Source: an uncultured Acidobacteriota bacterium
Lineage (GTDB): Bacteria; Acidobacteriota; Terriglobia; Acidiferrales; UBA7541
NCBI GenBank assembly: GCA_963832975.1
Contig: CAWHVX010000006.1
Location: forward strand, 912,243 to 976,242
Length of the DNA: 64,000 nucleotides
Direction: 5' to 3'
In this document: piece after piece, positions 1,039-38,837 of the stretch
Layout of the letters: each line of letters begins with the position of its first letter
How positions within the stretch are numbered: the stretch's first letter is position 1
Translations under genes and position numbers: made by a program
Notes under the pieces: generated by a model
What the model was told of the DNA's origin: nothing
The model's input: only the letters and a program-made list of their open reading frames with translations
Database searches by the model: none

Positions 1039-2481
1039 TTAGTAGTCGAACCATTGATCGAGCGCTTGTACTTTTTCTTTGGTATATGGCGGAAACAGGT
1101 GATCGATCGCCACATCCGGTGGGGAAATCAGGATTGATTTGGCGTGCGTGAGAGAATCGTAGCCATATTTCCCGTAGTAGTTTCCGATGCCTGAAGATCC
1201 CACCCCGCCGTACGGCATGGATTCAATGAACAAGAACACGTTCGTCTGGTTCACGGCGCCCCCGCCGAACGAAACGGACTGCAGCACCCGATCGATTGCC
1301 TGCTGATTCCGGCTGAACACATAGGCCGCAAGAGGCTTGGGCATCGACTTGATCTTTTCGATCAGCTTTCCAAGGTCGGAGTAAGTGAGTATAGGCAAGA
1401 GCGGCCCAAAGATTTCGTCTTCCATGATTTTGTCGGACCAGGAAATTGGGTAGAGAATGGTCGGATCGAGATAGCGTGCCGGAGCCTCCGACTTTCCACC
1501 GTAAACGACCTGCTTTGGATCGATCAGGGACGCTAACCGGTTTACGGCTGAGGGGCTGATGATGCGGGAATAATCCGGATTGCTCTTTGGATTGGCGCCG
1601 TAGAGGTCAACGGCAGCCATTCTGGATTCAGCTACGAACTGATCTGCGATCGATTCGTGAACGACAGCATAACCCGGAGATGTACACCACTGTCCTCCCC
1701 ATGTCATTGCGCCCCAAACGATTTTCTTAGCGGCGTCCGAAATGTTCGCTGTCTCGTCGACGATGGCCGGATTCTGCCCTCCCAACTCAAGTAACACCGG
1801 CGTCAGATTTTCGGCTGCGGCGCGCATCACGACCTTCCCAACCCCCACGCTTCCTGTGAGAAACAGAAAATCGAACGGAAGCTTCAAAAGATTGGTAACC
1901 ATGTCGCGTGCGCCGACTACAGCGCTGAACGATTCGGGTTCGAAATACCGGGGAATCAGTTCTAAGAGCAACCCATCCGTCGCCAGAAGTGCCTCAGAGA
2001 GTTTCAACATGCAGGGGTTGCCGGCAGCCAATGCCGCGACGGCGGGACGCAGCGAAAGAAGGAGCGGTCCGTTGAAGGGACAGATGATGAGCGCAACGCC
2101 GTAAGGTTCGCGGTATACCATTCCCTTGTGCCCGGACTTTGCGAGGAATTTTGGGAGAGGCGCTTCGACCGGCTTCATCCAGTCTTTAAGCTGAGATTTT
2201 GTGAACTCGGCCGTTGCAATTGGCGCGGAAACCTCGAAGGCGTTCTCCTGACTTGCCGTCTTGAAGTCCTTACGCGATGCGTCCGCAAAACGGTCGTAAT
2301 TCTCCCTCAGCATGCGCACGAGGCGATCCAGTTGGTCGGTTCTCCACCCATAGGGCTTTGTAGCGTCGGTGTCGAAGTATGCTTTCTGTTTGCGAAACAA
2401 TGCTTCGGCTTTGTCCCACGGGGTGAACTGGATCGAGCCTGCTTGAGTTTCATTCGTCTTTGCATTTGTTGGCGTAGACAT
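1039..2481 (-). CDS. aldehyde dehydrogenase family protein (ALDH3/coniferyl-aldehyde-DH-like)
   Basis: 480-aa ORF with ALDH hallmarks: ICPFNGPL, LELGGQNPAIVD, catalytic-Cys region GQWCTSPGY, EEIFGPLLPI. Confidence 0.9.
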   Translation of the reverse strand: MSTPTNAKTNETQAGSIQFTPWDKAEALFRKQKAYFDTDATKPYGWRTDQLDRLVRMLRENYDRFADASRKDFKTASQENAFEVSAPIATAEFTKSQLKDWMKPVEAPLPKFLAKSGHKGMVYREPYGVALIICPFNGPLLLSLRPAVAALAAGNPCMLKLSEALLATDGLLLELIPRYFEPESFSAVVGARDMVTNLLKLPFDFLFLTGSVGVGKVVMRAAAENLTPVLLELGGQNPAIVDETANISDAAKKIVWGAMTWGGQWCTSPGYAVVHESIADQFVAESRMAAVDLYGANPKSNPDYSRIISPSAVNRLASLIDPKQVVYGGKSEAPARYLDPTILYPISWSDKIMEDEIFGPLLPILTYSDLGKLIEKIKSMPKPLAAYVFSRNQQAIDRVLQSVSFGGGAVNQTNVFLFIESMPYGGVGSSGIGNYYGKYGYDSLTHAKSILISPPDVAIDHLFPPYTKEKVQALDQWFDY

Positions 2482-2526
2482 TCAGTCGCCTCTTTGTTCT
2501 ATTTCTGTTGTTCCCACCTCTCCGGT

Positions 2527-3564
2527 TTAGCGCGCATTCGGAGCGGAACCATTCTTTGTGACCAGCACCATACGAAAGCGAGCCTTCCCGGCCATCATCT
2601 TGGCGTAGGCGGCGGCCGCCTGCTCGAGAGGCATCGTTTCGATCATGGCAGACACCCCGCTGAGAGCACTGAAGCGCAGTGTGATATCCCCGACCTCGGG
2701 TGTTCCTGTGAGGGCACCTTCCAATTTGCGTGTGGCGAAAATCAGATCCATGCCGGAGACCTCGATCGGCTCTGGTCCCACTCCTACGACGATCGCGACA
2801 CCGCTCGGCCGCAATCCTTTAAACGTGGCAGCAACAGTCTTTCCCCCGGACGCGGTTATGAGAATGACGGTAGCACCGCCGAGTGCTTGCAAAGCAGCGG
2901 CAGGATCCGTCGCAGCGCTGTCGATATAGTGGTGAGCGCCAAGCTTCTTGGCTAGTTCGGTTGTGTCAGTTCCACGATCAATTGCAGCGACCTCGAATCC
3001 CATGCGCCTCGCGTACTGAACACCCAGATGACCCAGGCCGCCGATACCGAGCACAGCGACAAGATCGCCCGCTCTTGCAGGCGAGTTCCGCAGGGCGCTG
3101 AACGTCGTGATCCCCGCGCACAGCAGCGGCGCCGCATCGGCGGATGATAGACCGTCAGGAATCGAAACGAGGCCGCTTGTTTTTGCGATCATCACTTCGG
3201 CGTATCCGCCATCGTGATGAACGCCGGTATATTCCTGGTTCAGGCAGTTCACGAGATCGCCATTGCGACAGAATTTGCAATAGCCGCAAAAGCCAGCGAG
3301 GAACCCGACTCCGACCCTCTGCCCCACCGTCCAGCCTTGAACGCCTGTGCCAATGGTGTCTATACGTCCAACGACCTCGTGCCCCGGAACGCGCGGGAAA
3401 TCGATCGGGAAAAGCGCCTCTACGGTCGCGGCGTCCGAATGGCAAACACCACATGCCTCGATTCGGATGCGCACCTGACCAGGACCAGGATCCACAAGTG
3501 GCTTTCTTACTTCCGAGAACTTTCCGGGGCCCGAGAGCTCAATGGCTTTATACGTTGTGTTCAT
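2527..3564 (-). CDS. zinc-type (MDR) alcohol dehydrogenase
   Basis: ORF 2527-3783. Likely start is ATG 3564 (MNTTYKAIEL...). Motifs GVCHSD, GHEVVGRI, Cys cluster CGYCKFCRNGDLVNC and Rossmann LGIGGLGHLGVQYA. Confidence 0.9.
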   Translation of the reverse strand: MNTTYKAIELSGPGKFSEVRKPLVDPGPGQVRIRIEACGVCHSDAATVEALFPIDFPRVPGHEVVGRIDTIGTGVQGWTVGQRVGVGFLAGFCGYCKFCRNGDLVNCLNQEYTGVHHDGGYAEVMIAKTSGLVSIPDGLSSADAAPLLCAGITTFSALRNSPARAGDLVAVLGIGGLGHLGVQYARRMGFEVAAIDRGTDTTELAKKLGAHHYIDSAATDPAAALQALGGATVILITASGGKTVAATFKGLRPSGVAIVVGVGPEPIEVSGMDLIFATRKLEGALTGTPEVGDITLRFSALSGVSAMIETMPLEQAAAAYAKMMAGKARFRMVLVTKNGSAPNAR

Positions 3565-3643
3565 GGAAGCCTTCGCATTCGAACTGACGGTAGGGGTTGG
3601 CCGGAACGGCTGCAATGACATATAATCCACTTTTCCGGCCATT

Positions 3644-4684
3644 GTGAGAATCATGCCTGGGCTGACAATGAAACCAATACCGGCAAGCAGGCGACTCCCC
3701 ATATCGGTGGTTATCCTTGGGGTACCTCCCGTGGAGGAGCTCGATCTGATTGGTCCACTTGAGGTTTTTGCGGGCGCGAACATCGTACTCGGCGCGCGGG
3801 GTCCGGCTTACGACGTTCGAGTAGTAAGCTCCCAACCCAAACCAATCATTGCAGGCGAATGCGGAGTTTCTTTGTTAGCGCATGGCTATTACCGGAGACT
3901 GCGCGAGCCCGTGGACACACTGGTCGTCGTTTGCGGACCGACCTCAAAAGACACACGGGACAGCCGCTTTTCTCTCTGGCTTCAAAAGACTGCGGGCAGC
4001 GCACGACGAGTGGCATCCGTCTGCGTCGCAGCCTTCGTCCTGGCTGAAGCGGGTTTACTCCATGACAAGCGAGCAACAACTCATTGGGCCTTTGCTGCCG
4101 ATTTGCAGAAGAAATATCCAGATGTCAAAGTCGATGCGAATCCGATCTGGATACAAGATGGGAATATCTATACCTCTGCGGGAATCACGGCTGGCATCGA
4201 TCTCGCTCTGGCGATGGTAGAAGAGGACCACGGTGCGTCCGTGGCATTGGATGTAGCGCGCAACCTTATCGTGTTTCTGCGCAGACCCGGCGGTCAGGCG
4301 CAATTCAGCGTTTCCCTATCAACGCAAGCTTCGGGACGTAAGGCGCTACAGGACCTTCAGGTGTGGATGGCAGAAAACCTGAACAAGAATCTTTCTGTTG
4401 ATGTACTCGCCAGGCGTGCTGCTATGAGCCCGCGGAACTTCAGTCGCGTCTTCAGAAAGGAAACTGGCATTACACCCGCTAAGTTCGCGGAACGCTTGCG
4501 CGTGGAGGCTGCACGCCGACAGCTAGAACAAACTGTCAAGGCCATCAAGGAAATCGCTGCTTCCTGTGGCTTCAGCAGCTCTGAGATCATGAGACGTACT
4601 TTTCTCTCACAACTGCAGGTTACACCCAGCGCTTACCGGCTGCATTTTCAGCGCCGTAGTCCACCTGGGACAAGCCGGTCGTAG
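3644..4684 (+). CDS. GlxA-type transcriptional regulator (DJ-1/PfpI-like domain plus AraC HTH)
   Basis: 346-aa ORF, divergent from the ADH gene. N-terminal DJ-1-like part (ISVVILGVPPVEELDLIGPLEVF...TSAGITAGIDLALAMVEED). C-terminal AraC HTH (LARRAAMSPRNFSRVFRKETGITPAKF...GFSSSEIMRRTF). Start may be the internal ATG near 3668. Confidence 0.85.
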   Translation: MRIMPGLTMKPIPASRRLPISVVILGVPPVEELDLIGPLEVFAGANIVLGARGPAYDVRVVSSQPKPIIAGECGVSLLAHGYYRRLREPVDTLVVVCGPTSKDTRDSRFSLWLQKTAGSARRVASVCVAAFVLAEAGLLHDKRATTHWAFAADLQKKYPDVKVDANPIWIQDGNIYTSAGITAGIDLALAMVEEDHGASVALDVARNLIVFLRRPGGQAQFSVSLSTQASGRKALQDLQVWMAENLNKNLSVDVLARRAAMSPRNFSRVFRKETGITPAKFAERLRVEAARRQLEQTVKAIKEIAASCGFSSSEIMRRTFLSQLQVTPSAYRLHFQRRSPPGTSRS

Positions 4685-4689
4685 CGCTA

Positions 4690-4960
4690 TCGACTCCTGA
4701 ATTGTCGGCAAACGGGAAGTAACCCGTTTTTGTCCGTCCCGCGGCCAGCTGGCGACGAATCTGCCGCTGTTCCCGCGCCGCCTCCAGCTTTCGATCCCGC
4801 TCGGCCTGAATCTCCTGTTTGATGCTCGGCGAGCATGTCCTTCGGCGTGATGTTTCCGATGGCGCCGTTCAAACGCACGTTGTTTAGCATCGCGGCCCGC
4901 GCGGGGTCGGAAATCAGTAGCCGTCGACGCAATTCACACGCTAAGACTACCGCAGAGACG
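4690..4960 (-). mobile_element. relic of an IS3-family transposase (integrase-core C-terminus), frameshifted and 5'-truncated
   Basis: Minus strand reads ...NNVRLNGAIGNITPKDMLA. After a 1-nt frame change it continues QEIQAERDRKLEAAREQRQIRRQ, the typical YNxxRxHxAxGyxTPxxxL tail of IS3 OrfB. No DDE core is found upstream. Confidence 0.6.
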
Positions 4961-5241
4961 ATGCCAATGTTTCAACATCAGCTGGACTATTGTTGCCTCT
5001 ACCCAGGTCCGATCAGGCGCCCAGTTTTTGCGTGGGGTACTAGCCAAAAGCTCCAGTACGAGCTCAGTGGAAATTCGATTCACTGAACGTGGGCCGATGG
5101 CCACGGATGTTCCGCTTGGCACACTTCCGGGAATCCCCACGCTTGCTTCTTCTGCCTTGCAATCAATCGGTTACGAACTTGGGCCGAGTGGATCATGCCG
5201 TGCATTCGTTGCATCGAAGGAAGAGGGGGAAGGAGGGGGCC

Positions 5242-5391
5242 ATGGTGGTGCTTTTGATGATTGGAGTTTTGGCATGCCTTATCTTTCTTTGCGTTTCGCC
5301 GATGATTGCCCATTTTGCATCGCGCAAGTCGCGCGACGCGGCTCCTTCGAAATCGCGCCCGATTCAGAAGCACACTTTCTCGGCCCGCTGA
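5242..5391 (+). CDS. hypothetical 49-aa single-TM peptide
   Basis: ATG 5242 is preceded by GGAAGGAGGGGGCC (strong SD). Product: MVVLLMIGVLACLIFLCVSPMIAHFASRKSRDAAPSKSRPIQKHTFSAR. No homology recognised. Confidence 0.35.
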   Translation: MVVLLMIGVLACLIFLCVSPMIAHFASRKSRDAAPSKSRPIQKHTFSAR

Positions 5392-5525
5392 TTCACAACC
5401 CTGGGGAGGGACTCGGCGGGCCAAGGTTGGTCTTGGGAGACTGAATGATGGAATCGAAATGCACCGTTCGTATGAAACTGGGAACATGGTCGAGCCACCA
5501 GCTTGGGGGAACTTGGGCGCGCACC

Positions 5526-5834
5526 ATGCGCCGCGAGTCGAGACGCCGGAAGAGACTGAAGATGTCGCTGCCGCTTCACGTGCGCACGCTCGACGACCGC
5601 TTTGAGGACCATGAGGACCTGGGCGAGGTGGTCGATTTCAATACCGACGGCCTCTACTTCACAACGTCGAAACTTCACTACGAGCCGGGAATGAAACTCG
5701 GCATCACCTTCCCCTTTGGGGAGAACGTATCCGCGCGACGGAAGTTTGTCGGGTCGGTCGTACGCGTGGAGCATCGCTGGATCGGAAGCCGCGGAATCGG
5801 GATTCGGCTGTCAGATGAGGGGTCTGCGTCGTGA
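5526..5834 (+). CDS. PilZ domain protein (single domain)
   Basis: RRESRRRKR (RxxxR) followed by DFNTDG (D/NxSxxG-like). About 100 aa from ATG 5526 within ORF 5445-5834. Confidence 0.7.
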   Translation: MRRESRRRKRLKMSLPLHVRTLDDRFEDHEDLGEVVDFNTDGLYFTTSKLHYEPGMKLGITFPFGENVSARRKFVGSVVRVEHRWIGSRGIGIRLSDEGSAS

Positions 5835-5989
5835 GCTTCCTCTCAATTTGGCCTTTGGGCAATCGTCCCGGGATTGGGCTTGTGGGGGATCGAACCGCTA
5901 GAGACAATATGGGTGTACCGGCCGTCCGCCCCTCGTTCCTGGACGAAAAGCATCCGAACCACGAAAACGGAAAGCAGGTAGCGAATACG

Positions 5990-6523
5990 ATGCACGACAA
6001 GGGTCAGAAGAAATATTCGTCGGGCGGGGCCACCCGGGAAACCGGGACAACAGAAGCCGAGCGTCGCGGCGCGGACCGCCACATCTTCACGGCGTCCGCC
6101 GAGGTCGTCGATATGGCGACGGGCGCGCGATTCTCGACCAGAACCACGGATTTAGGCCCCGGCGGATGCTTTGTCGACACACTGTCCCCATTGCCAGTCG
6201 GTTCACAAGTGCATGTAAGCGTTCGCAAGGGAGAGACCCACTTTCGGTGCGAAGGTACCGTCGTGTATTCGCAGGACGGTCTTGGCATGGGCATCGGATT
6301 CGAGTCTCTCGACGCCACGCAGCAGCAACACCTCGAAACCTGGCTCACCGAGCTTACGGGCGGGCGCTATGTTCCGGCGGTCGACCTTCGCCGCGAAAAA
6401 CGGGCTCCGAAGTCGAGCAGCGGCGATCACGCCATGGTCGTTCGTTTGATCCAGCTGCTGATTGGCAAGGGTCTTCTGACCGAGGCCGAGGGTCAGTCCA
6501 TTTTGCACGACCCCTTGCTATAA
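5990..6523 (+). CDS. PilZ domain protein
   Basis: ERRGADRH (RxxxR) then TDLGPGGCFV. The ORF is open from GTG 5831, which overlaps the preceding stop as GTGA. I prefer ATG 5990 because codon third positions upstream are AT-rich. Start uncertain. Confidence 0.65.
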   Translation: MHDKGQKKYSSGGATRETGTTEAERRGADRHIFTASAEVVDMATGARFSTRTTDLGPGGCFVDTLSPLPVGSQVHVSVRKGETHFRCEGTVVYSQDGLGMGIGFESLDATQQQHLETWLTELTGGRYVPAVDLRREKRAPKSSSGDHAMVVRLIQLLIGKGLLTEAEGQSILHDPLL

Positions 6524-6686
6524 GGCACCGAACGGGCTGCCGAGGCTCTGGCAGGCTGTTCTCGAACGCGCCTCACGGACGTGCAGGTATTTCCTGTAGC
6601 AGGAAATTTTTCCCCGATTCATGTCAAATTGTCGTCCTGGCACTTAGCTAACCCCTTTGAATTCAGTGGCTGCTTCAAGTCCGGCC

Positions 6687-6702
6687 TGGCACACCTCGTG
6701 CA
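6687..6702 (+). promoter_or_regulatory. sigma-54-type -24/-12 candidate (TGGCAC-N5-GTGCA)
   Basis: GG 6688-6689 and GC 6700-6701 obey GG-N10-GC spacing. Lies about 28 nt upstream of ATG 6730 of the third PilZ gene. Confidence 0.25.
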
Positions 6703-6729
6703 CATACGAAAGGGTGAGGGGTGAGTCCG

Positions 6730-7074
6730 ATGGGGGAACGAAGAAAAGCCCGGCGATACGAAGTTTATCTGCCTTTGCAGGTTTGCATCTCGCGTAAGCG
6801 TCCGGCGGAATTCCACACGGCGCAGCTTCGCGATATTTCCCGGTCCGGCATCTACTTCCAGTCGAATGTATCGGTAGAGCCCGGCGCGGGAATGGAACTC
6901 ACGTTTGCGCTTCCCACGGACAAGGAACGGGGAGCATCCGTCCTGGTTCGCGCGAGCGCCAAGGCGCTGCGGATAGCGGCTGTGGAGGGCGAAATAACGC
7001 CCATCTACGGAATTGCGGCCAGCATCGACCGGATTGATTTCGTCCGGCCGGTCGTCGCGACGAACGCCGCCTGA
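6730..7074 (+). CDS. PilZ domain protein (single domain)
   Basis: ERRKARRYEV (RxxxR) and RDISRSGIYF (perfect DxSxxG). The ORF track starts at GTG 6721. ATG 6730 has better RBS spacing (GAGGGG). Confidence 0.75.
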   Translation: MGERRKARRYEVYLPLQVCISRKRPAEFHTAQLRDISRSGIYFQSNVSVEPGAGMELTFALPTDKERGASVLVRASAKALRIAAVEGEITPIYGIAASIDRIDFVRPVVATNAA

Positions 7075-7153
7075 TTTCGCTGGTTCCTGCCGCTTCGCTG
7101 GTCTGGGCTACAACTGCCTCCGATTGCCCTCTCTTTTGTCATTGGGTTCGCGT

Positions 7154-7183
7154 TTGCCGTCGCTTTAAGACCAACGCTAGAAT
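7154..7183 (+). promoter_or_regulatory. sigma-70-like promoter candidate TTGCCG-18nt-TAGAAT
   Basis: TAGAAT at 7178-7183 lies 6 nt before ATG 7190, which would make the mRNA leaderless. Confidence 0.35.
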
Positions 7184-7189
7184 GGCCGC

Positions 7190-7612
7190 ATGCGCATTTC
7201 CCCGCGATCGAGCGCGCGTTCCGGCGAATCCTCCGCTGAGCCTGCCGATCTCGAGCGCCGCGTCTTGCGCGGACTCTGCCACGCCAGAGTGGCGCGCCCG
7301 ATGTGGGCCAAAATCTCGATGGCTTTGCGCGAATACACTTGGCGGGATGTTGAGCACGGACTTGTGTACGCGGCGATCCAGCGCCTCGGCCCTCAAGATC
7401 CGAAAACGCTGCGCGAACAACTCCCTGCGCAGGCCACGCGCATGGGATTCCCCGACATCGACTGGCAAGCGTACTTTTCCGCGGAGGAGAAGCCGCGTGC
7501 GACGCCGGGCGCCGATCAGATCGTGCGCCAAATCAACCGACTGATTCGACCGCCACGAGCCGCCGCCGCGCCCGCGGGCGCTAAATCCGGGGGCCAGCGG
7601 CGCCCGGCCTGA
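7190..7612 (+). CDS. hypothetical protein (140 aa)
   Basis: Protein-like composition (..WRDVEHGLVYAAIQRLGPQDPKTLREQLPAQATRMGFPDIDWQAYF..). No family recognised. Confidence 0.45.
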   Translation: MRISPRSSARSGESSAEPADLERRVLRGLCHARVARPMWAKISMALREYTWRDVEHGLVYAAIQRLGPQDPKTLREQLPAQATRMGFPDIDWQAYFSAEEKPRATPGADQIVRQINRLIRPPRAAAAPAGAKSGGQRRPA

Positions 7613-7623
7613 TTCCGCTACAA

Positions 7624-7745
7624 GCCATCTCATAAACGTTCGCGGCGGAAGCGAAGAGTGTCTTCAGGGGCTAAAGCCCAGCTTTTCTTCGTCCTGAATG
7701 TCGGAGCTGAAGCTTCGACCCTCTGACGAGCATTTATGAGATGGC
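7624..7745. repeat. MITE-like 122-bp unit with 13-bp perfect terminal inverted repeats
   Basis: GCCATCTCATAAA (7624-7636) and TTTATGAGATGGC (7733-7745) flank GGGGCTAAAGCCC (7667-7679) and GGAGCTGAAGCTTC hairpin modules. Confidence 0.6.
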
Positions 7746-7754
7746 TGATGGCTT

Positions 7755-8816
7755 CTAGTCCTTGAAGGAGAAGTTGACGCCTGTCGTCAGAATGAGGTCG
7801 TTCCTCAGCGTTCCGGGAATCGGGTCGCTCAGGAAACGATCGCTCGCCGTTGTCTGCCAGCCGAGCCACTTGTTGATTTTCGTGGCCAGTCCCAAATCGA
7901 ACGCGGAGCGGTATTGACCCGCGTCGCTGAGATCGGGATAGAAATAAAACTGCTCGTTCACGGTAGTCGATTTTCCGAGCTTGCGCATGAAGTCTTCCCC
8001 CGCCGTCACGCCGGCGATATTGCGCTGGATTGCCGGGGTGGAGGGATTCGCCGAATACGATTCGCGGGTATAGTTGCCGCCGAGCAGCAGATCGAGCGTC
8101 ATATTCGGCTGTTTGATCGCGTGGTAGCCGAAGCCGGCGCTATAAATCGAGCGCAGATTCAGGTCCTGAAGCTCGTTGTATTCGTAATCCGCGCTGCCGA
8201 AGGCGAAGGCGAGCGAGCCGATATTGTGGTCGTAGCGCGCGCCGCCGCGAATGTCGTTGGCTGTGACGCCTCCCGCGCCGGGTGTGTTGTCCGAGGCGTA
8301 GATCGACGAGGCGTAGGTGAGCAGTTTGTCGTCGAGCGTGGTGCGCGCCCCATTGAAACCGATCGCGAGATTGGTCGTATTGCTGTTGCCGCGTGCCAGC
8401 GAGAATCCGACCGTCGCCGCGCCGTCCCAATTCTCGGAAAAGCCCGGATGGAGCGAATGCTCGTAGGCGGCCTGCTCGGATTCGGATCGCACCATGGTCA
8501 CGTCGCCCAGCGGCACCTGGACCGTGCCGGCGTCGGACGTTGCGACCTCGAGATTCGTGTCCTCCATGGTCAGTTTTCCGCTGATGATCTTCTTGTCTTT
8601 CGTGGTGACGGCGACGGGCGCCTCGGAAACGATCTGCTTCACCGCCGACACCTGCACGCTGATCTCTCCCGCGTAATCGGTTTTCAGCGTGAGCTGTTTT
8701 CCGTCGGAATGCTCGATCGTGCCGGTGAGATGATCGCCGTTCTTCAGGAGGATCGTGTCCGCCCTTGCCGCGCCGGCAAGGCCTATGAACAGGAAAAGTG
8801 CTCCGAGAATTTTCAT
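7755..8816 (-). CDS. DUF481 family outer-membrane protein (YdiY-like)
   Basis: Signal peptide MKILGALFLFIGLAGAARA. Beta-rich body with GNSNTTN, DYEYNELQDLNLR, RNDLILTTGVNFSF and a C-terminal aromatic residue. Confidence 0.7.
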   Translation of the reverse strand: MKILGALFLFIGLAGAARADTILLKNGDHLTGTIEHSDGKQLTLKTDYAGEISVQVSAVKQIVSEAPVAVTTKDKKIISGKLTMEDTNLEVATSDAGTVQVPLGDVTMVRSESEQAAYEHSLHPGFSENWDGAATVGFSLARGNSNTTNLAIGFNGARTTLDDKLLTYASSIYASDNTPGAGGVTANDIRGGARYDHNIGSLAFAFGSADYEYNELQDLNLRSIYSAGFGYHAIKQPNMTLDLLLGGNYTRESYSANPSTPAIQRNIAGVTAGEDFMRKLGKSTTVNEQFYFYPDLSDAGQYRSAFDLGLATKINKWLGWQTTASDRFLSDPIPGTLRNDLILTTGVNFSFKD

Positions 8817-8967
8817 ATGGATGGTCCTTTCGGAAAAAGATCAGCTGGGGAGGCTTCGAGTCTACCAGATGGGGCGAATACGGGAGCCGGCAAGATGGGC
8901 CAAGCTGAAAATTGCTTGCCGGCGCGTGTACGGCGGCCCTCAAGAACGGCGAAACGGGCCGCGCAAG

Positions 8968-9876
8968 TTACTTTTTCGATTCCCCCTTTGCGGCGAGTTC
9001 GAAATCGATGTACTGCACGAGCGTTTGCGGATCGCCTCCGGCCAGCGGCCGGCCGTTGACGTATGCCGTCGGCGTGCTGTTCACGCCGAGCGCCACGCCC
9101 TCGGCGCGCTCCGCGTCGACGGCCTTTTGCGCGCCCGCCGACGAGAGGCACGCCTTGAATGTATCGGCGTTCAGTCCGGCCTGCGACGCGTACGACACGA
9201 GTTTGTCCCACACATTTTCGGGCGAAATCACGTCCTGATCGTCGAAGATCGCGTCGTGGACCTTCCAGAAAGCTTCCGGCGACTGCTCGTAGGCGCAGTG
9301 CGCGCCGATCGCCGCCGTCTGGGCCCATGGATGGATCGTGGTGAGCGGAAAATTCTTGTAAACGAAACGCACCTGCGGATATTTCGCCTCGATCCCCTGC
9401 AGGCTCTCGTAAAGCTCGCGGCAGTGCGGGCACTCAAAGTCGGCGTATTCAACCACCGTCACCTTCGCGTCCGCGGGGCCTTTCGACGGGCTGCCGGCCA
9501 AATGAATCTTGGACACATTATCGGCGAAGGGGTCGGTATGCATGTCGAAAATTTCGCCGCGCAGCAGCGTCTTCCCGTCCTTGCTTACGTAGACTTCGCC
9601 GTTTTCCTTGTCGTTGTTCAGCGTCACTTCCACGGGCACGGCGTAGAAATCGGCCGCCGACGATTGGGCGAGCGGGCCGAGCGTGACCTTGATCTCCGGC
9701 CCCCAGGCGAAGAGCCTGCGCACGAATGCCTCAGTCGACTTCAGAAGCGCCGCATCCTCGGGCGAAGCGGCCGCAGCCGGCGCGGGATCCGAAGCCGGCT
9801 TCGGCGTCTGGCCGACGGCCGGCAGCGCTGCCAGCAACAGCGCCAAAGTCCCCAACAACGCATTTCGATACGACAT
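8968..9876 (-). CDS. DsbA-family thiol:disulfide oxidoreductase, exported
   Basis: Signal peptide, CPHC active site (YADFECPHCRELY), and TPTAYVNGRPL typical of the DsbA fold. Confidence 0.85.
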   Translation of the reverse strand: MSYRNALLGTLALLLAALPAVGQTPKPASDPAPAAAASPEDAALLKSTEAFVRRLFAWGPEIKVTLGPLAQSSAADFYAVPVEVTLNNDKENGEVYVSKDGKTLLRGEIFDMHTDPFADNVSKIHLAGSPSKGPADAKVTVVEYADFECPHCRELYESLQGIEAKYPQVRFVYKNFPLTTIHPWAQTAAIGAHCAYEQSPEAFWKVHDAIFDDQDVISPENVWDKLVSYASQAGLNADTFKACLSSAGAQKAVDAERAEGVALGVNSTPTAYVNGRPLAGGDPQTLVQYIDFELAAKGESKK

Positions 9877-9984
9877 CGGAATAAGTCCTCCATAAATTCG
9901 CGCCAGTATCTTAGGAAGTCTAGAACAGGATAAAGAAAAAACGCGAGAAGAGCAAAACGCAATGCCGCCCCGGCGAACGCCCGA

Positions 9985-26630: not shown

Positions 26631-29600
26631 CTAATTCACTGTGAGCGGGAGCTGGATTGTTCGGCTTACGGTGGTCGACGATACGGTCACCGTTGCGGTG
26701 ACCGTGATTGTGTACGTTCCGAGCGGCGTGCCTGGGTCCGCGGCTGGCGGATCGCTGCTGCCGCCTCCGCACGCGGCGAGGCCTGCGGCGAGCACCAGAA
26801 GGAGTGCGCCGGCCTGCACGGCTTGGACGAAGCCCGGCCTGTGTTTTTTCGCCCGTGAAGCCGCGATCAGGATCGCGATGGCCGCCAAGATTGTGGCGAG
26901 CGCCAGAGAATTCGGTGGAGCGGCGCTGGGCGGCTGCTTGCGCGGAACGTAGCTCGTCGACGTGGGCGTTGGCGCGGTGGTTGTGACGTTCACGGTGAAC
27001 GAGCCGGCCGCCGTTGGAGTGACGTTCACGGTTGAGGCCGACAGCGCACACGCTGGCGCATCCGTCGCCAGTGTCGGCGCAGGCGCGTCTACCGGCGCAA
27101 CCGAACAGGAGGCGAGGGCGACGCTGCCGGTGAATCCCGCCGACGAGTTTACCTGCAGGTTGTAGGTCGCGGTCTCACCCGGCGTGATGGGCGCGCTTGC
27201 TGCCTGGCCTGACGGAGCGCTGAAGCAGAAATCCTCGGCCGTGCCCGTGAGCGCGACGCTTTGCGGGCTGCCCGGCGCGTTGTCGCTGAGCGACAGCGTG
27301 GCGTTTCTTGTGGATTCCGTGCCGCAGGTGGACGCTTGCAGCGGCCGAAATGCGATTTGAACCGTGCACGTGCCGCCGGGCGAAGTGCTGGCGGACGAGC
27401 AGGTGTTGCTTGCGATGTCGAAGTCGCTGCTGCTCGGGCCTTTCACGCTCACACCGGTGAATGTGAGCGGTCCCGCATTTGATCCGGTGGCGCTGTTTGT
27501 GATTGTGATCGGCTGCGGCGCTCCCGCGCTCTGCGCGAGCTGGCTGCCGAAGTTGACGCTGGACACGACCGAAACCGAGGCGGACAGAGCTACGGAGGCG
27601 CTTCCAGTGAGGGGCACGACGAGTTCTTGCTCCGGGCTGCCGTTGAAGTGATACGAGAACGTCGATTTCAGACTGAAATGAGCCTGCCGACTGCGGCACG
27701 AAAACGGCGCTCACGCTGCATCTGCTGGTGGGATTCATCTGTGCGCCGACCATGCAAGCGTTGCCGCCCGCTGCGAGCTGGAACTGGCCGGGATTCGCGC
27801 CGCCAAGCGAAGGCGCAGCGTCGATCGTCATGGTCTGCTTCACGGGGCTGACCACCGTGAACGTGACTTGCTGCGGATCGCTCGGGGCGCCCACTGCTTG
27901 CGCGGGAAAACTCACACTCACGGGCGAAGCCGCTAATCCCGGCGCAACGCCGAGCAGTTCGAATTCCTGCGGGCTGCCGGGCGCGTTGTCCGTTACGCGC
28001 ACCACCGCCGTCTCATAGGCGGCTCCCGACGGAGAGAAATCAACGGAGAAAGGGCACGATCCGCCCGGGTTGAGAGGCTGCGACGTGCATGCCAATTGGC
28101 CCGAGAGCGAGAAGTCCGCGCTATTGGGGCCGGCGAGCGTGACCGTGGTGATATCGAGAGGTGATTCGCCCGTGTTCGTGAGGCCGAGGTATTGCGTTTC
28201 CGAGCTGAAAAAATTCAAGCGCGGCAGACTGAAGCTTACCGCAGGCGCGAGCGTTGAATTTTCCTGTAGTTCGGCGAGGAAGGCGTCCGTTGCCGGCGGC
28301 GAAACCAAGCAACTCGAGCAGACAGGCTGGCTGCCATTGAGCGAGCCGCCGCTCGATGTGATGGCAGTGGGAAAATCGGGCGAGGTGGTGGCGCCCGCCA
28401 GATAGACGAGATTTGCGGCACCCGTTGAATTCACCGCGACCGCATTTCCGGCGGCGCCTCCGCTTTGGCTTGCGGAAGACGTGCCGCCGAGCGGCGTGGC
28501 GTACGCGAGCGACGCCGCGCCGGCGGACGTGGGGTCAAACTTTGCGACGAAGGCGACCTGCTGGCCGTTGAACGGCTGAATGTTGTCGTGCCATGGAAAA
28601 TCCCACGACGTAGTGGTGCCGCCGACGTAGACCTCGTTGGACGCGATGACTGAGATACTCTGCCCAGCGTCGGCGGCCGATCCGCCGATGTAGGTGGAAT
28701 AGAGCAGCGAGGTTTGTCCTGTGGCACTTTGGCCGACGACCACGAGGAAGGCGTTCGCGGCCGCGTTTGGGTTGAGGCTCGTGCTGAACCCGGCCAACAG
28801 GCTTTCCGTGGGGAAATCGGTCGAGTCCGTTGCGCCGGTGATGTACGCGCTGGGATTCGAGTTCGAGTCGAGCGCTACCGCGAGCGCCTGATCGGTGCCG
28901 CTGCCACCAAGCAGCGTCGCGTAGACCAGATCGACGGTGCCTTGGGACTGCGGCGAGATCTTCATCAGGAAGGCATCCGACGTGCCTCCCCCGTACGCGG
29001 TTTGAAACGCGTTTGTGTATGGAAAGGCGGTCGTGGCGTTTTGCGCGCCTCCGGCGATGTAGGCGCTGCCGGTGGGATCCACGGCGATGCCGCCGACGGT
29101 GACTAACGCGAGCGCGTTGGTGCCGAGATACGAGCAGTATTTCAGGGTCGCCGCGGCGCCGGGTTGCGCCGGGGGCGTGAAGATGGCGAGAAAGCCGTCG
29201 CTCTCATCGCCGTCCCACGTGGCCGAGTACGCGCCGGTTGTGACGGGCAGGTCGGCGGAGGTTGCGTCGAGCGACGTGGTGTTCGTATCGGACGCGATGT
29301 AGACATCGCCGGAGGAATCGAGCGCGATCGCACCGGTTCCGTTTTGCGATTCCGCGCCGCTGCCGCCGAAGAGCGTCGAGAAGACGAGCGTGCTGCCCGA
29401 AGGGCCGATTTCGCTGACGGCCACGTCGTTGCCGATGCCGCTGGTGAGCGCGTTTGTTGGCAGCGTCGAATCGGTGACCGGGAAATCCGGAGATGTGGTG
29501 GCGCCGGTGATTGCGACGCTGCCGCTGCTGGTGACGGCGATCAGGCCGCCGGCCTGGGTCTGGCTGCCGCCGAGGAACGTGAGATAGACGAGCGAGTTTG

Positions 29601-30687
29601 CGCCGGTGATGGTCGGATCGATCTTGGCGACGAAGAATTCGGATGCGCCGCCGCCGGGACCAAGGGTGTGAAACGTACCCGGGAACGTGCCGGGCGAAGT
29701 GGTGGTGCCGGCGACGTACACTTTGCCCGCGCCATCGAGCGCGACGCTTGCCGCTACGTCCGCGCCGTTGCCCCCGAGGAATGTGGCGTAGGCAACGGAG
29801 AGCGATGGATCGATGATCAGCGCGGCGTGAGGATCGTGCGGGCCGATGCGAAAGCCGAGTGAGCCGTCCGCTTCGAGGATGTAGGCGCCAGCGATCTGGC
29901 GCTTGCGAGCGGCATTTGCGCCGGCGGACTGTGCTAGCTCTTGAAACACGACGGGCTTTTTCATGCGGAGCTCGCCCTCGCCGGCTTTCAGGAGAATGTC
30001 GCCGTTCGGTGCGAGGCGTCTAGCGTCCGCGCCGGAGATTTTGAAACGCAGCGCCGAGAGATCGGCGCCCGGGGCGACGCGAAGGTCGTATTCGACGCCT
30101 TCGTCGTTGCCATAGAGGACGATGCCCACGCCCGGGGCCGCGTTTCTCGCGCCGACTTCGGCGAAATGCGGGACGTGGGTGTGCCAGCGGCGCGGATTGT
30201 TGCCGAGGATGTAGTTGGTTTCGCCGCGAAGCTTTTCGCGGCCCTGCCATGCGAGGCCGGGTGCGCCGGCGAGGCGCATGGTTATCGTGCGCGGACGGCG
30301 CGAGGTTCGAGTGCGCGCGGCGAACGATGTTGCGGCCATCTGCACCACGATTTCGCGGCTTTCGAGAAATACTGTCAATCCCTTGCCGCGGCCAATGAAT
30401 GCGACGCGGGAATCCGCCTGGCCGAGGTTGGGCTCGAAGGCAAAGGGCAACGACAAGGGGGACTGGCGGGCGAGATTTGCGGCGCCCTTGCCCGCGGCCG
30501 GGAAAGCGTCACGGCCGGGCGCACTTCGGGCGGCGAAGTCGCGAGCCGGCGTTCTCGCGACCAATTTTGCGGATGCGCGCAGCGTTGCAGAGCGATAGGC
30601 GGAAATCTTTCGTGCGAAGAGGAGACTCCCGGCGAGCGCCAGAAGACAGACGGCGAGAACGCACAGCCACGGCAATTTCCTGCTCAT
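26631..30687 (-). CDS. very large exported SBBP (beta-propeller) repeat / Ig-like repeat protein, frame broken once near 27660-27680
   Basis: Signal-anchor MSRKLPWLCVLAVCLLALAG. Many ..VYVAGTTTSPDFP.. SBBP-type repeats, then Ig-like repeats (..TDNAPGSPQ..LTGT..). The conserved repeat continues from ORF 27175-30687 (..SAGSFQS) into ORF 26631-27617 (STFSYHFNGSPEQELVVPLTGSAS..). The last ~170 aa of the track ORF are Arg/His-rich out-of-frame text. Confidence 0.75.
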
Positions 30688-32125: not shown

Positions 32126-32692
32126 TCAACGGCTCGCCGGCGGAACGATGCCGTTCATGCGCAGGTATTCGACCATCTGACCGTAGTGATTGCTCGAGTG
32201 CGCGACCACGTCCACGGCCAGCTGAAGGCGCGTCTTCTGCTTGGGGCTTGGGTAGGCCTTCAATTGTTCGAGCATGTTTTGCTGGTTGATTGCAGCCATC
32301 GCGCGATGCAGGGCCGCGAATGAGCCTTTGAGGTAGTCCATGATCTGGGCTTTGGATTGGACTGCGTCTGGCCCGGTCTCGGACTTCTGATCGGGCGTGG
32401 GAGTCTGATTCAGGATGTAGGTGGCCATGCGGTAATTGTTGGCGGCGAGGTGCTTGATCTGCTGGGCGAAGGTGCGGACGCCAGTGAACTCGCCAGCGGT
32501 TGGCGCGAAGGAGTATTTCTCCTCGGGCATGGCGTCGGCCGCGGGAACGACCTCGTTTTCGGTGTTGGTGATCCAGAAATCAAGAGCCTGGCTGACCGTG
32601 TGGATCGGCGCCGGCTGGCTTTCTTGTGCGCGGGCCGCGCCGCAAGCGGTGAGCAGAACCGCGACCGCCAAGACATAGTGGAATGGTTTCAT
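32126..32692 (-). CDS. DinB-family protein with lipoprotein signal peptide
   Basis: AAGGAGGA RBS. MKPFHYVLAVAVLLTACGA lipobox. DinB-like HLAANNY...VVAHSSNHYGQMVEYLR. Confidence 0.7.
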   Translation of the reverse strand: MKPFHYVLAVAVLLTACGAARAQESQPAPIHTVSQALDFWITNTENEVVPAADAMPEEKYSFAPTAGEFTGVRTFAQQIKHLAANNYRMATYILNQTPTPDQKSETGPDAVQSKAQIMDYLKGSFAALHRAMAAINQQNMLEQLKAYPSPKQKTRLQLAVDVVAHSSNHYGQMVEYLRMNGIVPPASR

Positions 32693-32739
32693 AAATCCTC
32701 CTTGGGCCCGCATTGCCGTGCAGAAGCGGGACGACTGAA

Positions 32740-32830: not shown

Positions 32831-33289
32831 ATGCCTCCACTGCACATTTCCGAAGTGGCGCGGCAGGTCGGGCTCCGGCCGTCCGCGATTCGCTATTACG
32901 AGCAGATTGGGCTGCTTCCGCCCGCGCAACGCGTGAGTACACAACGACGTTACGACGCGACGGCGCTCTACCGGCTGGCCATCATTCAGCGCGCGCGGCA
33001 GCTTGGTTTTACGCTGGACGAAATCAGGCAACTGTTTTTCGGCTTTGGCAATGCGACGCGGGCGTCGGAGCGCTGGCAAAGGCTGTCGCGGCGAAAGCTG
33101 GCGGAGCTGGACAGCTTGATGGACGGCATCAAGGAAGTGCGGCGTTTACTGAAAAGGATGATGCGGAAGTGCCGGTGCGAAACGCTGGATCAGTGCGGCA
33201 AGGGCATATTTCGCAACGCTTGCGGGGAGGGTACGACTCTCATGCGAATCGCGACGCGGCAAAAGCCTCACCCCGGGAAAGCGGGGTGA
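32831..33289 (+). CDS. MerR-family transcriptional regulator with Cys-rich C-terminus
   Basis: HISEVARQVGLRPSAIRYYEQIGLL HTH, coiled-coil, C-terminal KCRCETLDQCGKGIFRNAC. TAGAAT (32819-32824) lies 6 nt before the ATG. Confidence 0.85.
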   Translation: MPPLHISEVARQVGLRPSAIRYYEQIGLLPPAQRVSTQRRYDATALYRLAIIQRARQLGFTLDEIRQLFFGFGNATRASERWQRLSRRKLAELDSLMDGIKEVRRLLKRMMRKCRCETLDQCGKGIFRNACGEGTTLMRIATRQKPHPGKAG

Positions 33290-33471: not shown

Positions 33472-35248
33472 ATGGATAGACGAAAAGTATTGAGATTTCT
33501 GGGGATCAGCCCGGCGGTATTGGCGGGATTCCCTGCTAGCGCTGAGAAGAGTCGGGCCCGGGGTGGCGTCATCTGACGGAAACGCGGGCGATCTGATTAC
33601 CGTAATGAACCCTGCGATTGCCGGGAAGTTGGCGGAACGGGTGCCGCTGGTGGCGCCGCTCGATACGCTGAACGCCAAGTCGATCTACATGGTCAACCTT
33701 TCGTGGGAGGGGCCGGATGCGGCGAACTACTTCTACGAAGCGATGACGGAGTGGTTGCAGAAGCACTACACCGGCGTCACAACGAAGGTGAAGGTTACGG
33801 CGGAGGGGATGTTCGGCGCCGATCCCGGGCTACTGAAGGACATCACGGCCAGCAAGGCCGATGCTGCGATTGTGGGCGTCGCTGGTTGAAACGGCTGCTG
33901 CGCGGCCGTGAGCCGCTGGGCGAAACAGATTGAGATGGTTTGCAAGATTCCCGCCATTGGTATTGCCTCCTCAAACATCGTGCATTACGCAACCGGGTAC
34001 GTGGCCAAATATCAGACGGGCATGCCGATCCGGTATGTGTCGGTGCCATTTCCTTTCACAGGGCAACCACGCGCGGTGGACGTGGGATATGTGACGGGCA
34101 AGGACATGCTGAGCGGGCGGCCGTTGATGACCGCCGTGATTGGTGCACTGACCGATCCTCTGACAGCCGAAGAAAAGATCTCGGGCGCACCGCCCGAGGA
34201 ATCGATGGAGCCGAGGCTGCTTCCGCCCGCCACCGAAGACAACCTGCGCGTGATGTTCGACGAGAAGGAATGGACCGATTTCAACACGATCATCCTTCCA
34301 ACCGAAAAGCGCGTCACTGAGATGCTCAAGGGGACGAGCCACAAGCCGGATGAGGTGATCAAGACGATCAACATCACCGGCGGGGCGCGGCCACTGACCG
34401 TCGAGAAAGTGGCGGTGAGCGCCGTGATGGCCGGGGCATCGCCGGAGCATTTTCCGGTAATCCTCGCGCTCGCGACGCAGGCGCCTTTCGGCAACTCGAC
34501 CAGTTCGATGGCGAATATGGTCATCGTGAGCGGGCCGATCCGCGACAAGCTGAAGTTCAATTGCGGGACCAACGCGATGGGGCCGTACAACCGGTCGAAT
34601 GCGGTGGTCGGACGCGCCTTCACGATCATGTCGAAGACGGCGGGCGACCTGCGCAACAACGTGAACGCCTGGGAAACGCTGGGCAACACGGCGCAGTACA
34701 ACAATATGTGCTATGGCGAGAATGAGGCGTCACTGCCGGAGGGATGGCAGCCGCTGCACGCGCAGATGGGCTTCAAGCCGACCGAGAACGTCCTGACGGT
34801 GGGGACCGGCTGGAGCGCCATCGCGAGCGTGGGAGCGAGCCAGAGCATCTATCCGACCCACTACCTGATGCGCGATTACATGAGCTCGTTCTGCGCATCG
34901 GGATCGTCGGCGACCGTCGTGATCGACCCAACCGTGGCCGGGCTGCTCAAGGACACGCACGGGTTCCAGACGAAGGAACAGCTGAGCGAGTGGTTCTCGC
35001 AGAACATCCAGAAGACCGCCGGGTCGTATTGGGGCAACGGCGTGATTCAGAGCACGGCTGTGCCGCTGGCTCTGCAAGGCCTCGAGCCTTACGCAAGCTG
35101 GAGGAAACTGCCGGATGACGCGCTGATCAAGCCGTTCACCAACCCGCGGGCGATCCATGTGATCGTGGCCGGCGGAGGAGTGCAGACCATGTGGTTCGTC
35201 ACGGACTACGGCATACGCCGGGGCGTGAAGATCGACGAATGGATGTAA
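33472..35248 (+). CDS. candidate Tat-exported selenoprotein: UGSC-like domain (in-frame TGA 33887-33889 read as Sec) fused to an uncharacterised ~350-aa domain; 1-nt frame offset near 33545-33575
   Basis: Tat signal MDRRKVLRFLGISPAVLAGFPASA (frame 1, stops at 33576). The body starts in frame 2 (ORF 33563-33889), and the same frame resumes at 33908-35248. Junction is ..IVGVAG-TGA-NGCCAAVSRWAKQIEMVCKIPAIG... A hairpin lies 13 nt after the TGA. There is no RBS before GTG 33908. Confidence 0.5.
33897..33922 (+). other. SECIS-like stem-loop downstream of TGA 33887
   Basis: GCGGC (33902-33906) / GCCGC (33912-33916) with loop CGUGA. Outer wobble and bulged pairs are possible. Confidence 0.35.
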
Positions 35249-35317
35249 AATAGAGGTTGGTCGGCGGTGTGCACGGGGCGCAGGCGCGCTCCGTGCTTGC
35301 ACCGCGAAGGAGCGGAG

Positions 35318-35848
35318 ATGAAGGCGCAATTCCTCGGGGTGGCGAGCTTCGTGGTGGGATCGCTGATGCTGATGCCTACGGGGCTTTCCGCGCAGACTGC
35401 GGCGAAAGACTCGCAGCAGAAAGCGGACCACGATGCCGCGGCATCCGCGAAGGATGCGTTGCCTTTTCCGAAGGCGCCGCGCATTACGGCCGAGGAAGTG
35501 GAGCGACAAATCAAGGACAAGAAAGACGTGGTGATCGTCGACACGGATGATTCGATCAGTTACGGCGCCGAGCATATTCAGGGAGCGGTCAACATCACGT
35601 ACGACCCCACGACGGATGCTCGGGCGGCGGATGACACGCTCAGTGCGCTGCCGGGCGATAAACTGGTCGTGTTTTACTGCGATTGCCCGCACGAGGAAGA
35701 TAGCGCACCATTCGTTTTGGAGATGCAGCAGCTGGGCTACGATCCTGCCAAGGTGAAGGCGCTCGAGGGCGGCCTCACGCGGTGGGAACAACTGCACTAC
35801 CCCCTTGCGGGCACGGATATAAGCGTGGCTCAGGAAAAGGGCAACTAA
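35318..35848 (+). CDS. exported rhodanese-domain sulfurtransferase
   Basis: AAGGAG RBS, signal peptide MKAQFLGVASFVVGSLMLMPTGLSAQ, rhodanese core VIVDTDD..YGAEHIQGAVNI..LVVFYCDCPHEEDSA..LEGGLTRW. Confidence 0.8.
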   Translation: MKAQFLGVASFVVGSLMLMPTGLSAQTAAKDSQQKADHDAAASAKDALPFPKAPRITAEEVERQIKDKKDVVIVDTDDSISYGAEHIQGAVNITYDPTTDARAADDTLSALPGDKLVVFYCDCPHEEDSAPFVLEMQQLGYDPAKVKALEGGLTRWEQLHYPLAGTDISVAQEKGN

Positions 35849-37577: not shown

Positions 37578-38837
37578 ATGCTTGAGCCTGCCAAGAACGA
37601 ACTTCTGACCCAGGTGGGCCGCGGCACGCCGATGGGCGAACTGCTGCGGCGCTACTGGATGCCGATTGCCGGCGTGAGCGAGTTCGACAACGAGTCGATC
37701 AAGCCCGTGCGGGTGATGGGCGAAGACCTCACGCTGTATAAGGATCTCAGCGGAAATTATGGGCTCGTGGGGCGGCACTGTCCGCATCGCTGCGCGGATA
37801 TGTCGTATGGATTCGTCGAGCAGTGCGGACTGCGATGCAACTACCACGGCTGGCTTTTCGATCGGGACGGCCGCTGCCTGGAGCAGCCTTACGAGGATGT
37901 GGCGCAGCCGGAGGCGCGTTTCCGCGAAAAGGTGCGCATTGCGGCATATCCCGTCGAAGTGAAGGCGGGCCTGATCTGGGCGTACCTCGGGCCGGAGCCC
38001 GCGCCGCTGGTGCCGACGTGGGAGCCGTTCACATGGAAGAACGGATTCGTGCAGATTGTTTTCGCCGACGTGCCGTGCAACTGGTTCCAGTGCCAGGAAA
38101 ATTCCGTCGATCCGCTGCACTTCGAGTGGATGCACATGAACTGGAGCGTGCGGCTGAAGGACAAGATGGGGCCGTATTCGCCGCGGCATCTGAAGCTGGC
38201 GTTCGAGGAGTTCGATTACGGGATCGTCTACCGGCGAATTCGCGAGGGGATGAGCGAGGACGACCCGATGTGGAAGGTCGGGCGCGTGTGCCTGTGGCCT
38301 AACGCGCTTTTTACCGGCGATCATTTCGAGTGGCGCGTCCCGATCGACGATGAGAACACGCTGAGCGTGACGTGGTGCTTCAGCCGCGTGCCGAAGGAGC
38401 GCGAGCCGTACGTCCAGGAGCAGATTCCAGCCTGGCGCGGACCCGTGCGCGATGCGGACACGGGGCGGCTGATTTCGAGCCACGTGATGAATCAGGATTT
38501 CGTTGCGTGGGTCGGACAAGGCGTGATCCCAGATCGCACGCAGGAACATCTCGGGACGAGCGATGCGGGCATCATCATGATGCGGCAACGGTTCTTGAAG
38601 GACATCGAGGGCATCGCGCGCGGCGAGGATCCCAAGGCGGTGGTGCGCGACGCGGAGATCAATCGCTGCATCGGATTGCCGATCGCCGACCGGAAGAATC
38701 TGGTGGAGGGCATGACGCTCGAACAGACCGCGAAGCATCCGCTCGCCGGCGGGCATTTGACCGACTACGTATTTCAGGCGGGTCAGCCCAGCGAAGTGCG
38801 CAAAGCGTATGCGGACGCGATGGGCCTTCCGAAGTGA
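37578..38837 (+). CDS. Rieske [2Fe-2S] non-heme-iron oxygenase, catalytic subunit (VanA/KshA/PAO-like, no beta subunit)
   Basis: CPHRCADMSYG...CNYHGWLFD Rieske motif. Mononuclear-iron region NSVDPLHFEWMH. Confidence 0.85.
   Translation: MLEPAKNELLTQVGRGTPMGELLRRYWMPIAGVSEFDNESIKPVRVMGEDLTLYKDLSGNYGLVGRHCPHRCADMSYGFVEQCGLRCNYHGWLFDRDGRCLEQPYEDVAQPEARFREKVRIAAYPVEVKAGLIWAYLGPEPAPLVPTWEPFTWKNGFVQIVFADVPCNWFQCQENSVDPLHFEWMHMNWSVRLKDKMGPYSPRHLKLAFEEFDYGIVYRRIREGMSEDDPMWKVGRVCLWPNALFTGDHFEWRVPIDDENTLSVTWCFSRVPKEREPYVQEQIPAWRGPVRDADTGRLISSHVMNQDFVAWVGQGVIPDRTQEHLGTSDAGIIMMRQRFLKDIEGIARGEDPKAVVRDAEINRCIGLPIADRKNLVEGMTLEQTAKHPLAGGHLTDYVFQAGQPSEVRKAYADAMGLPK

Follow-up and report, generated by a model that had tools for sequence, protein, structure and literature searches.

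We analysed a window of 64,000 nucleotides (nt) from the genome of an uncultured bacterium of the Acidiferrales, phylum Acidobacteriota (assembly GCA_963832975.1, contig CAWHVX010000006.1, positions 912,243 to 976,242), with a focus on a gene that contains an in-frame TGA codon. Two open reading frames (ORFs), at 33563-33889 and 33908-35248, lie in the same frame and, as an earlier note on this DNA had pointed out, are separated only by the TGA at 33887-33889 and 18 stop-free nt. Reading through the TGA gives the sequence IVGVAG-[TGA]-NGCCAAVSRW, in which a Cys codon (TGC, 33896-33898) stands three residues after the TGA. By comparison with orthologues, the complete gene extends from an ATG at 33472 to a TAA at 35246-35248. 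It comprises a signal peptide (33472-33549), the N-terminal part of a UGSC domain up to the residue before the TGA (33563-33886), the remainder of the UGSC domain with a linker (33890-34207), and a C-terminal domain of about 346 amino acids (aa; 34208-35248, including the TAA). A gene for a secreted rhodanese-domain protein follows at 35318-35848. All of these features are on the forward (+) strand.

Taken as a whole, the locus is best explained by a single gene, from ATG 33472 to TAA 35248, that encodes a secreted two-domain selenoprotein, a reading that we consider highly probable. The interpretation as a selenocysteine (Sec)-containing protein given in the earlier note was thus largely correct, but its gene start, GTG 33563, is replaced here by ATG 33472. 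Absent from that note were the signal peptide and the frameshift concealing it, the rhodanese as a conserved partner, and the 2008 report of a UGSC fusion (PMC2398784).

The TGA was present at this column in all 36 intact orthologous loci, which represented two phyla and included many species-level genomes of Acidiferrales together with three Desulfobacterota at 53-57% identity. The protein sequence was conserved on both sides of the TGA, which always formed part of a U-x-x-C motif, and the resolving Cys at +3 was found in all loci of the Sec form as well as in 20 CxxC homologues. A third phylum was added by a relative from Gammaproteobacteria (approximately 40% identity), the gene of which was split at the same place (GVGH-TGA-STCSPAVVGH). 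The motif itself varied among these groups, being U-N-G-C in the window, U-D-S-C in Desulfobacterota, and U-S-T-C in Gammaproteobacteria. Among 71 full-length relatives (530-640 aa), Cys occupied the TGA column in 21, and in 20 of the 71 it appeared as Cys-x-x-Cys, as exemplified by P0322 (52% identity, GISG-C-DSC), P0275 (GH-C-STC), and P0200 (C-G-S-C). The other full-length relatives had lost the redox pair and carried L, M, S, T, or A in this column. The U-x-x-C geometry proposed in the earlier note, and its expectation that homologues would show Cys or TGA at this position, were therefore borne out by the orthologues and by the CxxC relatives. Gene calls in the databases were consistently interrupted here: all 120 closest proteins were 426-446 aa long and began just after the TGA point, and about 27 relatives at approximately 40% identity started 9-62 residues past the TGA column, none of them crossing it.

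The nucleotide sequence around the TGA was also constrained. In a codon alignment of 34 Acidobacteriota sequences (551 columns), the minimum of synonymous-codon entropy in the gene fell in the 10-codon segment starting at the TGA (0.04, compared with a gene mean of 0.90), the low stretch covering codons -1 to +9. This pattern indicates that the constraint acts on the RNA itself. Because TGA ends 11 of the 29 other confident ORFs of the window, the genetic code is standard and any decoding of this TGA is site-specific; a global reassignment of TGA was ruled out on the same count. Screening the window for TGA codons flanked in the same frame by stop-free stretches of 50 or more codons on each side gave 155 junctions, of which three passed a coding-composition filter on both sides. 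The other two of these three, at 18457 and 23105 on the reverse (-) strand, proved to be antisense shadows of opposite-strand genes and were rejected. Taken with the hairpin described below, these lines of evidence make the TGA at 33887-33889 very probably a real Sec codon. Selenoproteins are also on record for some Acidobacteria (PMC1794560, Table 2).

A candidate Sec insertion sequence (SECIS) hairpin was located at 33899-33922 (+), directly after the resolving Cys codon. Its upper stem consists of GCGGC (33902-33906) paired with GCCGC (33912-33916) around the loop CGUGA (33907-33911), which is the structure that the earlier note had picked out at 33902-33916, and it continues through a 3-nt bulge (33917-33919) into a lower stem (33899-33901/33920-33922). 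The upper stem starts 13 nt past the TGA, the loop is 17 nt from the TGA, and a G occupies loop position 2. The bSECISearch criteria for bacterial elements place the apical loop 16-37 nt from the UGA with a G within the first two loop bases, and the CGUGA-loop hairpin agrees with them in both spacing and loop G. Comparative analysis favoured exactly this hairpin, since 96.2% of the alignment cells were paired and four of the eight pairs were changed on both sides; at most one of 500 shuffles reached the observed values, and slid controls scored far lower. The core cggccgugagccg was kept in the AT-richer Desulfobacterota genes. A competing hairpin (33891-33898/33902-33909, loop UGC) was rejected, as it showed no covariation and its loop lies only 9 nt from the UGA. 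In the relative from Gammaproteobacteria the sequence at this place differs, but there too a 6-bp stem with a GGUC loop begins 11 nt after the UGA.

Next, we compared the read-through protein with known families. The Pfam UGSC profile (PF24696) matched residues 31-168, spanning the TGA, with 31.2 bits against a cut-off of 25 when Cys was written for Sec, and with 24.1 bits when X was placed at the Sec position. The same profile matched all 22 aligned relatives (best E 3e-34), and the part of the domain before the Sec was conserved as protein in 38 loci; the part after it is supported by the PF24696 match and by a structural model of P0322. The assignment to the UGSC family suggested earlier was thus supported by a match across the junction itself. 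UGSC is an established selenoprotein family, represented in an ocean survey by 255 proteins of the Sec form and 21 of the Cys form (Zhang & Gladyshev; PMC2398784), and a 2026 review lists it as functionally uncharacterised (PMC13188914). The window protein shares with the family the profile match, a Sec of U-x-x-C in the family's Sec column, and the existence of Cys homologues, whereas it differs in its U-N-G-C motif, in place of the literal U-G-S-C tetrapeptide, and in its signal peptide, C-terminal domain of about 346 aa, and conserved rhodanese neighbour. By these sequence comparisons, the predicted protein is a new, distant, secreted member of the known UGSC selenoprotein family.

The two-domain form of UGSC is already present in databases and probably in the literature of 2008. 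NCBI names a 555-aa two-domain relative from Neorhizobium (P0275, C-S-T-C) 'UGSC family (seleno)protein', and a 'UGSC/Unknown_1 fusion' selenoprotein appears in Global Ocean Sampling data (PMC2398784, Figure S1A). This fusion, from aquatic metagenomes, resembles the window protein in joining a UGSC domain to a conserved domain of unknown function, and Unknown_1 is possibly the C-terminal domain of the window protein.

The start of the gene became apparent from the related loci. Upstream translation of 37 of them revealed, in all Acidiferrales orthologues, a signal peptide of the type MDRRK(V/M)L...LG.SPA that shares the frame of the UGSC domain. The window encodes the same MDRRK-type peptide (MDRRKVLRFLGISPAVLAGFPASAEK, 33472-33549) from an ATG at 33472 that is preceded by aagaagggggg, resembling a ribosome-binding site (RBS), yet here the peptide lies in another frame than the UGSC domain, and the frame of this ATG ends at a TGA at 33574-33576. 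The difference was traced to a G/C run at 33554-33563 (+; gggcccgggg), which has one base more than in the seven closest orthologues; in this alignment (A5), the window reads GGGCCCGGGG where L002, L004, and L006 read GGG-CCCGGG. The apparent GTG start at 33563 is thus a side effect of the 1-nt insertion or deletion in this run. As the run is rich in homopolymers, the additional base most likely arose during assembly. The Acidiferrales peptide has a pair of Arg residues followed by a hydrophobic stretch, whereas the relatives from Desulfobacterota and Gammaproteobacteria have classical hydrophobic signal peptides without RR. The Pfam profile TAT_signal did not match the Acidiferrales-type peptide at E ≤ 0.1, so that the twin-arginine reading is supported by the RR motif alone.

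To describe the fold, we modelled the Cys orthologue P0322 over its full length with AlphaFold (predicted local distance difference test (pLDDT) 87.6, predicted template modelling score (pTM) 0.85). In this model, the UGSC domain consists of five strands alternating with helices, and the Sec/Cys stands where strand 129-135 ends and helix 138-153 begins. Foldseek returned partial matches to flavodoxin-like proteins, lumazine synthase, and B12-binding domains, with no thioredoxin among them, and nothing significant for the full-length model. A thioredoxin-like fold had been suggested for UGSC in 2008 (PMC2398784); because the partial matches are not thioredoxins, that suggestion is unsupported here, and the modelled domain is instead a parallel alpha/beta structure of the flavodoxin type. 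A PRA isomerase match in the profile search of the PDB, which covered the UGSC part only, was at chance level and was discarded.

The C-terminal domain, which the earlier note could not name, remained nameless, with no Pfam, NCBIfam, or PDB sequence match. The model of the window's own domain (34208-35245) was confident (pLDDT 89.7, pTM 0.89), and Foldseek found no match to it in the PDB at E ≤ 0.001, the best template modelling (TM) scores being 0.22-0.26. Weak matches to class I fumarate hydratase, Toblerone-fold amidohydrolases, and a PrpD-family epimerase had root mean square deviations of 12-17 Å and were not used. Conserved motifs of this domain include WTD..P..LPTE, TVEKVA.NAVMAG, NGP, N.ANA.GRA, ENE, and PW.P.H; no Cys is conserved, and the residues that never vary (D, T, E, N, R, E-x-E, and H) have polar or acidic side chains.

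The Sec region resembles that of selenoprotein B of the glycine and D-proline reductases (GrdB and PrdB, PF07355) in having U-x-x-C, then a helix, and then a strand of the type LE..GIPTVG. In a profile comparison with hhalign the U/C-x-x-C columns aligned exactly, at a level that was not significant (E 0.011, probability 3.9%), and one relative weakly matched TIGR01917 (E 0.064); the PF07355 profile did not match the window protein itself. The two families would be alike in principle, in that the Sec attacks and the nearby Cys resolves to a selenenylsulfide. They differ in that the window protein is predicted to be secreted, has another second domain, and has no pyruvoyl partner of the PrdA/GrdE type nearby. 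We regard this resemblance as a lead only.

The gene directly downstream (35318-35848) encodes a rhodanese-domain protein (Pfam PF00581, E 5e-14) with its own signal peptide and the active-site loop FYCDCPHEE. It occupied this position in 39 of 40 loci, including two of the three Desulfobacterota (L034 and L036). When flanking ORFs were clustered across loci, only three real recurrent genes emerged, namely the two halves of the selenoprotein gene and the rhodanese gene; the other neighbours varied. The loop was FYC(N/D)C(P/S/A)HEE in 37 loci and YCDC or YCGC in Desulfobacterota, from which we conclude that the Cys-x-Cys is conserved. The loop is unusual for a rhodanese, having a second Cys two residues past the catalytic Cys and acidic instead of basic residues. 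Between the two genes lies a GC-rich stem-loop (35268-35299, +), for which RNAalifold on 12 Acidiferrales loci gave 12 pairs, six of them changed on both sides, and a consensus energy of -24.0 kcal/mol. It is not followed by a T-run, and no terminator-like site was called in the intergenic region between the selenoprotein and rhodanese genes; the element may stabilise or attenuate the transcript.

Periplasmic rhodaneses that carry sulfur with a redox partner include Sud of Wolinella, which works with polysulfide reductase, and PspE of Escherichia coli. The window locus is comparable in that the gene of a secreted single-domain rhodanese adjoins that of a secreted redox protein. It differs in that the putative partner is a selenoprotein and the rhodanese loop has an unusual Cys-x-Cys with acidic residues.

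Several other gene arrangements were observed around the selenoprotein gene and its relatives. The Desulfobacterota loci L034, L035, and L036 (about 1300-9900) share a cluster in which the order is a lipoprotein-like gene of about 290 aa, a 4Fe-4S protein with a twin-arginine translocation (Tat) signal, an aldehyde:ferredoxin oxidoreductase, the selenoprotein, the rhodanese, which L035 lacks, and a molybdenum hydroxylase (molybdenum subunit of the xanthine dehydrogenase family). In Neorhizobium galegae (L045), a 325-aa thioredoxin-reductase-like flavoprotein (8671-9648) starts 3 nt after the stop of the gene for a cytoplasmic CxxC two-domain protein, upstream of which are genes for malonyl-CoA decarboxylase and an AMP-binding enzyme. 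Distant relatives are often encoded as two adjacent paralogues (L046, 5147-8761; L047, 7001-10607; and the contig of P0322), an adjacency that suggests hetero-oligomers. The contig of P0322 also carries a multihaem cytochrome gene and a fragment of a gene with a SelB domain (winged-helix).

These features can be assembled into a putative mechanism. SelB with Sec-tRNA(Sec) would bind the hairpin at 33899-33922 and, in the way known for bacterial Sec codons, direct insertion of Sec at the UGA, and the signal peptide would direct the protein out of the cytoplasm. There, the Sec and the Cys at +3, at the predicted strand-to-helix junction, may cycle between selenol/thiol and selenenylsulfide, and this U-x-x-C pair could act on a substrate for which the fused C-terminal domain provides the binding site. 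The secreted Cys-x-Cys rhodanese, presumed to be co-transcribed, would be the likely partner, either delivering sulfane sulfur or exchanging disulfides or persulfides with the U-x-x-C. For the cytoplasmic Cys form of Neorhizobium, the adjacent thioredoxin-reductase-like flavoprotein may be the corresponding reductant. Because a rhodanese adjoins the gene, the most economical guess for the substrate is sulfane sulfur or persulfide chemistry.

Some results weigh against this interpretation. At the level of the gene, the copy in the window is frameshifted at its signal peptide, and the NCBIfam UGSC equivalog model NF041046 scored 32.2 bits against a cut-off of 125; falling so far below that cut-off, the protein is to be taken as a distant member of the domain family and not as an equivalog of the protein of about 150 aa. 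With regard to the hairpin, the covariation stems essentially from one deep split, between Acidiferrales and Desulfobacterota, so that few independent covariation events are represented. Folding of single sequences was no better than that of shuffles (z -1.4 and -1.8), it was the competing hairpin that had the lowest energy in the window, and Rfam gave no match at gathering thresholds in the whole window. A search with ARAGORN of the window and 42 loci, together with tblastn probes of E. coli SelA, SelB, and SelD against the same sequences, detected neither tRNA-Sec nor selA, selB, or selD, the window and the locus flanks of about 600 kb being too small a sample to be informative. Finally, the selenenylsulfide cycle and the partnership with the rhodanese were deduced from motifs and gene order only.

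The frameshift bears on the possibility that the window copy is a pseudogene or yields a non-secreted product, in which case the additional base would be real and the protein would start at GTG 33563 without a signal peptide. The frameshift is indeed present in the sequence as given, and another orthologue, L025 (MFD09286.bin.1.244, about 5900-7369), is disrupted too. In that locus the match exceeds those of the other loci by about 34 nt, reflecting an insertion or deletion or an assembly problem, and the same ggtTGAaacggc string, comprising the TGA and the sequence that follows it, is still present. However, the window gene is otherwise intact and shares 96-99% identity with orthologues that are not disrupted, seven close relatives are without the extra base, and a homopolymer-rich run is a typical site of assembly errors, all of which make a decayed or non-secreted copy improbable. 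The public gene calls, all of which split at the TGA, could alternatively be taken at face value as two separate genes, for a 108-aa protein ending at TGA 33887 and a 446-aa protein starting from GTG 33908. We find this scarcely credible: no purine-rich RBS precedes GTG 33908 (ggctgctgcgcggccGTG), as had been noticed previously; the 18-nt spacer never leaves the frame and codes for a conserved x-x-C, also between phyla in which its nucleotides are not the same; a single Pfam domain runs across the junction; and the full-length Cys relatives align straight across it.

Even if the TGA is read through, the UGA could be decoded by a tRNA other than tRNA-Sec, such as a Cys tRNA similar to tRNA-Sec or an allo-tRNA that suppresses opal codons, so that Cys or some other amino acid would be inserted. 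Precedents exist in allo-tRNAs of Acidobacteria, which are possible nonsense suppressors, and in a selC*-type tRNA-Cys of Deltaproteobacteria that mimics tRNA-Sec (PMC5389517); moreover, Cys would be chemically acceptable, since relatives have CxxC, and the failure to find Sec machinery in the window and locus flanks accords with such decoding. Against this, general suppression would be costly where TGA is the normal stop of 11 of 29 window genes, and TGC would suffice to encode Cys, yet every orthologue has TGA. The local hairpin and the synonymous constraint are typical of SelB-dependent decoding, and UGSC proteins are an accepted Sec family (PMC2398784; PMC13188914). Decoding by a non-Sec tRNA is accordingly very unlikely in our estimation, and we retain the secreted two-domain selenoprotein as the explanation of the locus.

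The wider neighbourhood of the gene was variable. Just upstream in the window are a gene for a MerR-family regulator (32831-33289, +) and one for a DinB-superfamily protein (32126-32713, -), which were found beside the selenoprotein gene in no other locus, not even in L001, which is 99% identical. A few kb upstream of the gene, a protein of 1170 aa that contains DUF7948 and SBBP (beta-propeller) repeats (27175-30687, -) was common to the closest loci only, and a downstream gene for a Rieske [2Fe-2S]/LigXa-like oxygenase (37578-38837, +) was conserved in the closest relatives only. Two loci, L023 and L029, contained a gene 75-85% identical to the Acidiferrales gene in bins labelled Baltobacteraceae and Dormiibacterota, labels that point to either a binning error or a recent transfer.

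The finding leaves knowledge of Sec decoding itself unchanged; what is new is that the gene is systematically misannotated, that a rhodanese is its conserved probable partner, and that the confidently modelled C-terminal fold is without a solved analogue. Every public gene call that we encountered for this protein was split or truncated at the Sec codon, and the 120 closest entries were unnamed or labelled 'hypothetical'; a selenoprotein widespread in soil has therefore been effectively invisible in databases. The UGSC family has been known from metagenomes since 2005-2008 and is still without a function, for which the present analysis provides leads in the export signal, the strictly conserved Cys-x-Cys rhodanese, and the thioredoxin-reductase-like partner of the cytoplasmic Cys form. 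A further lead is the C-terminal domain, which is of catalytic size in a confident model and is without a solved analogue. More speculatively, this domain might represent a new enzyme fold, and the selenoprotein and the Cys-x-Cys rhodanese might together constitute an undescribed extracytoplasmic sulfur/selenium redox system of soil Acidobacteriota and Desulfobacterota, a proposal to which we assign a rather low probability. If true, it would provide the first functional handle on UGSC, which is among the more abundant prokaryotic selenoprotein families and has been without an assigned function since 2005.

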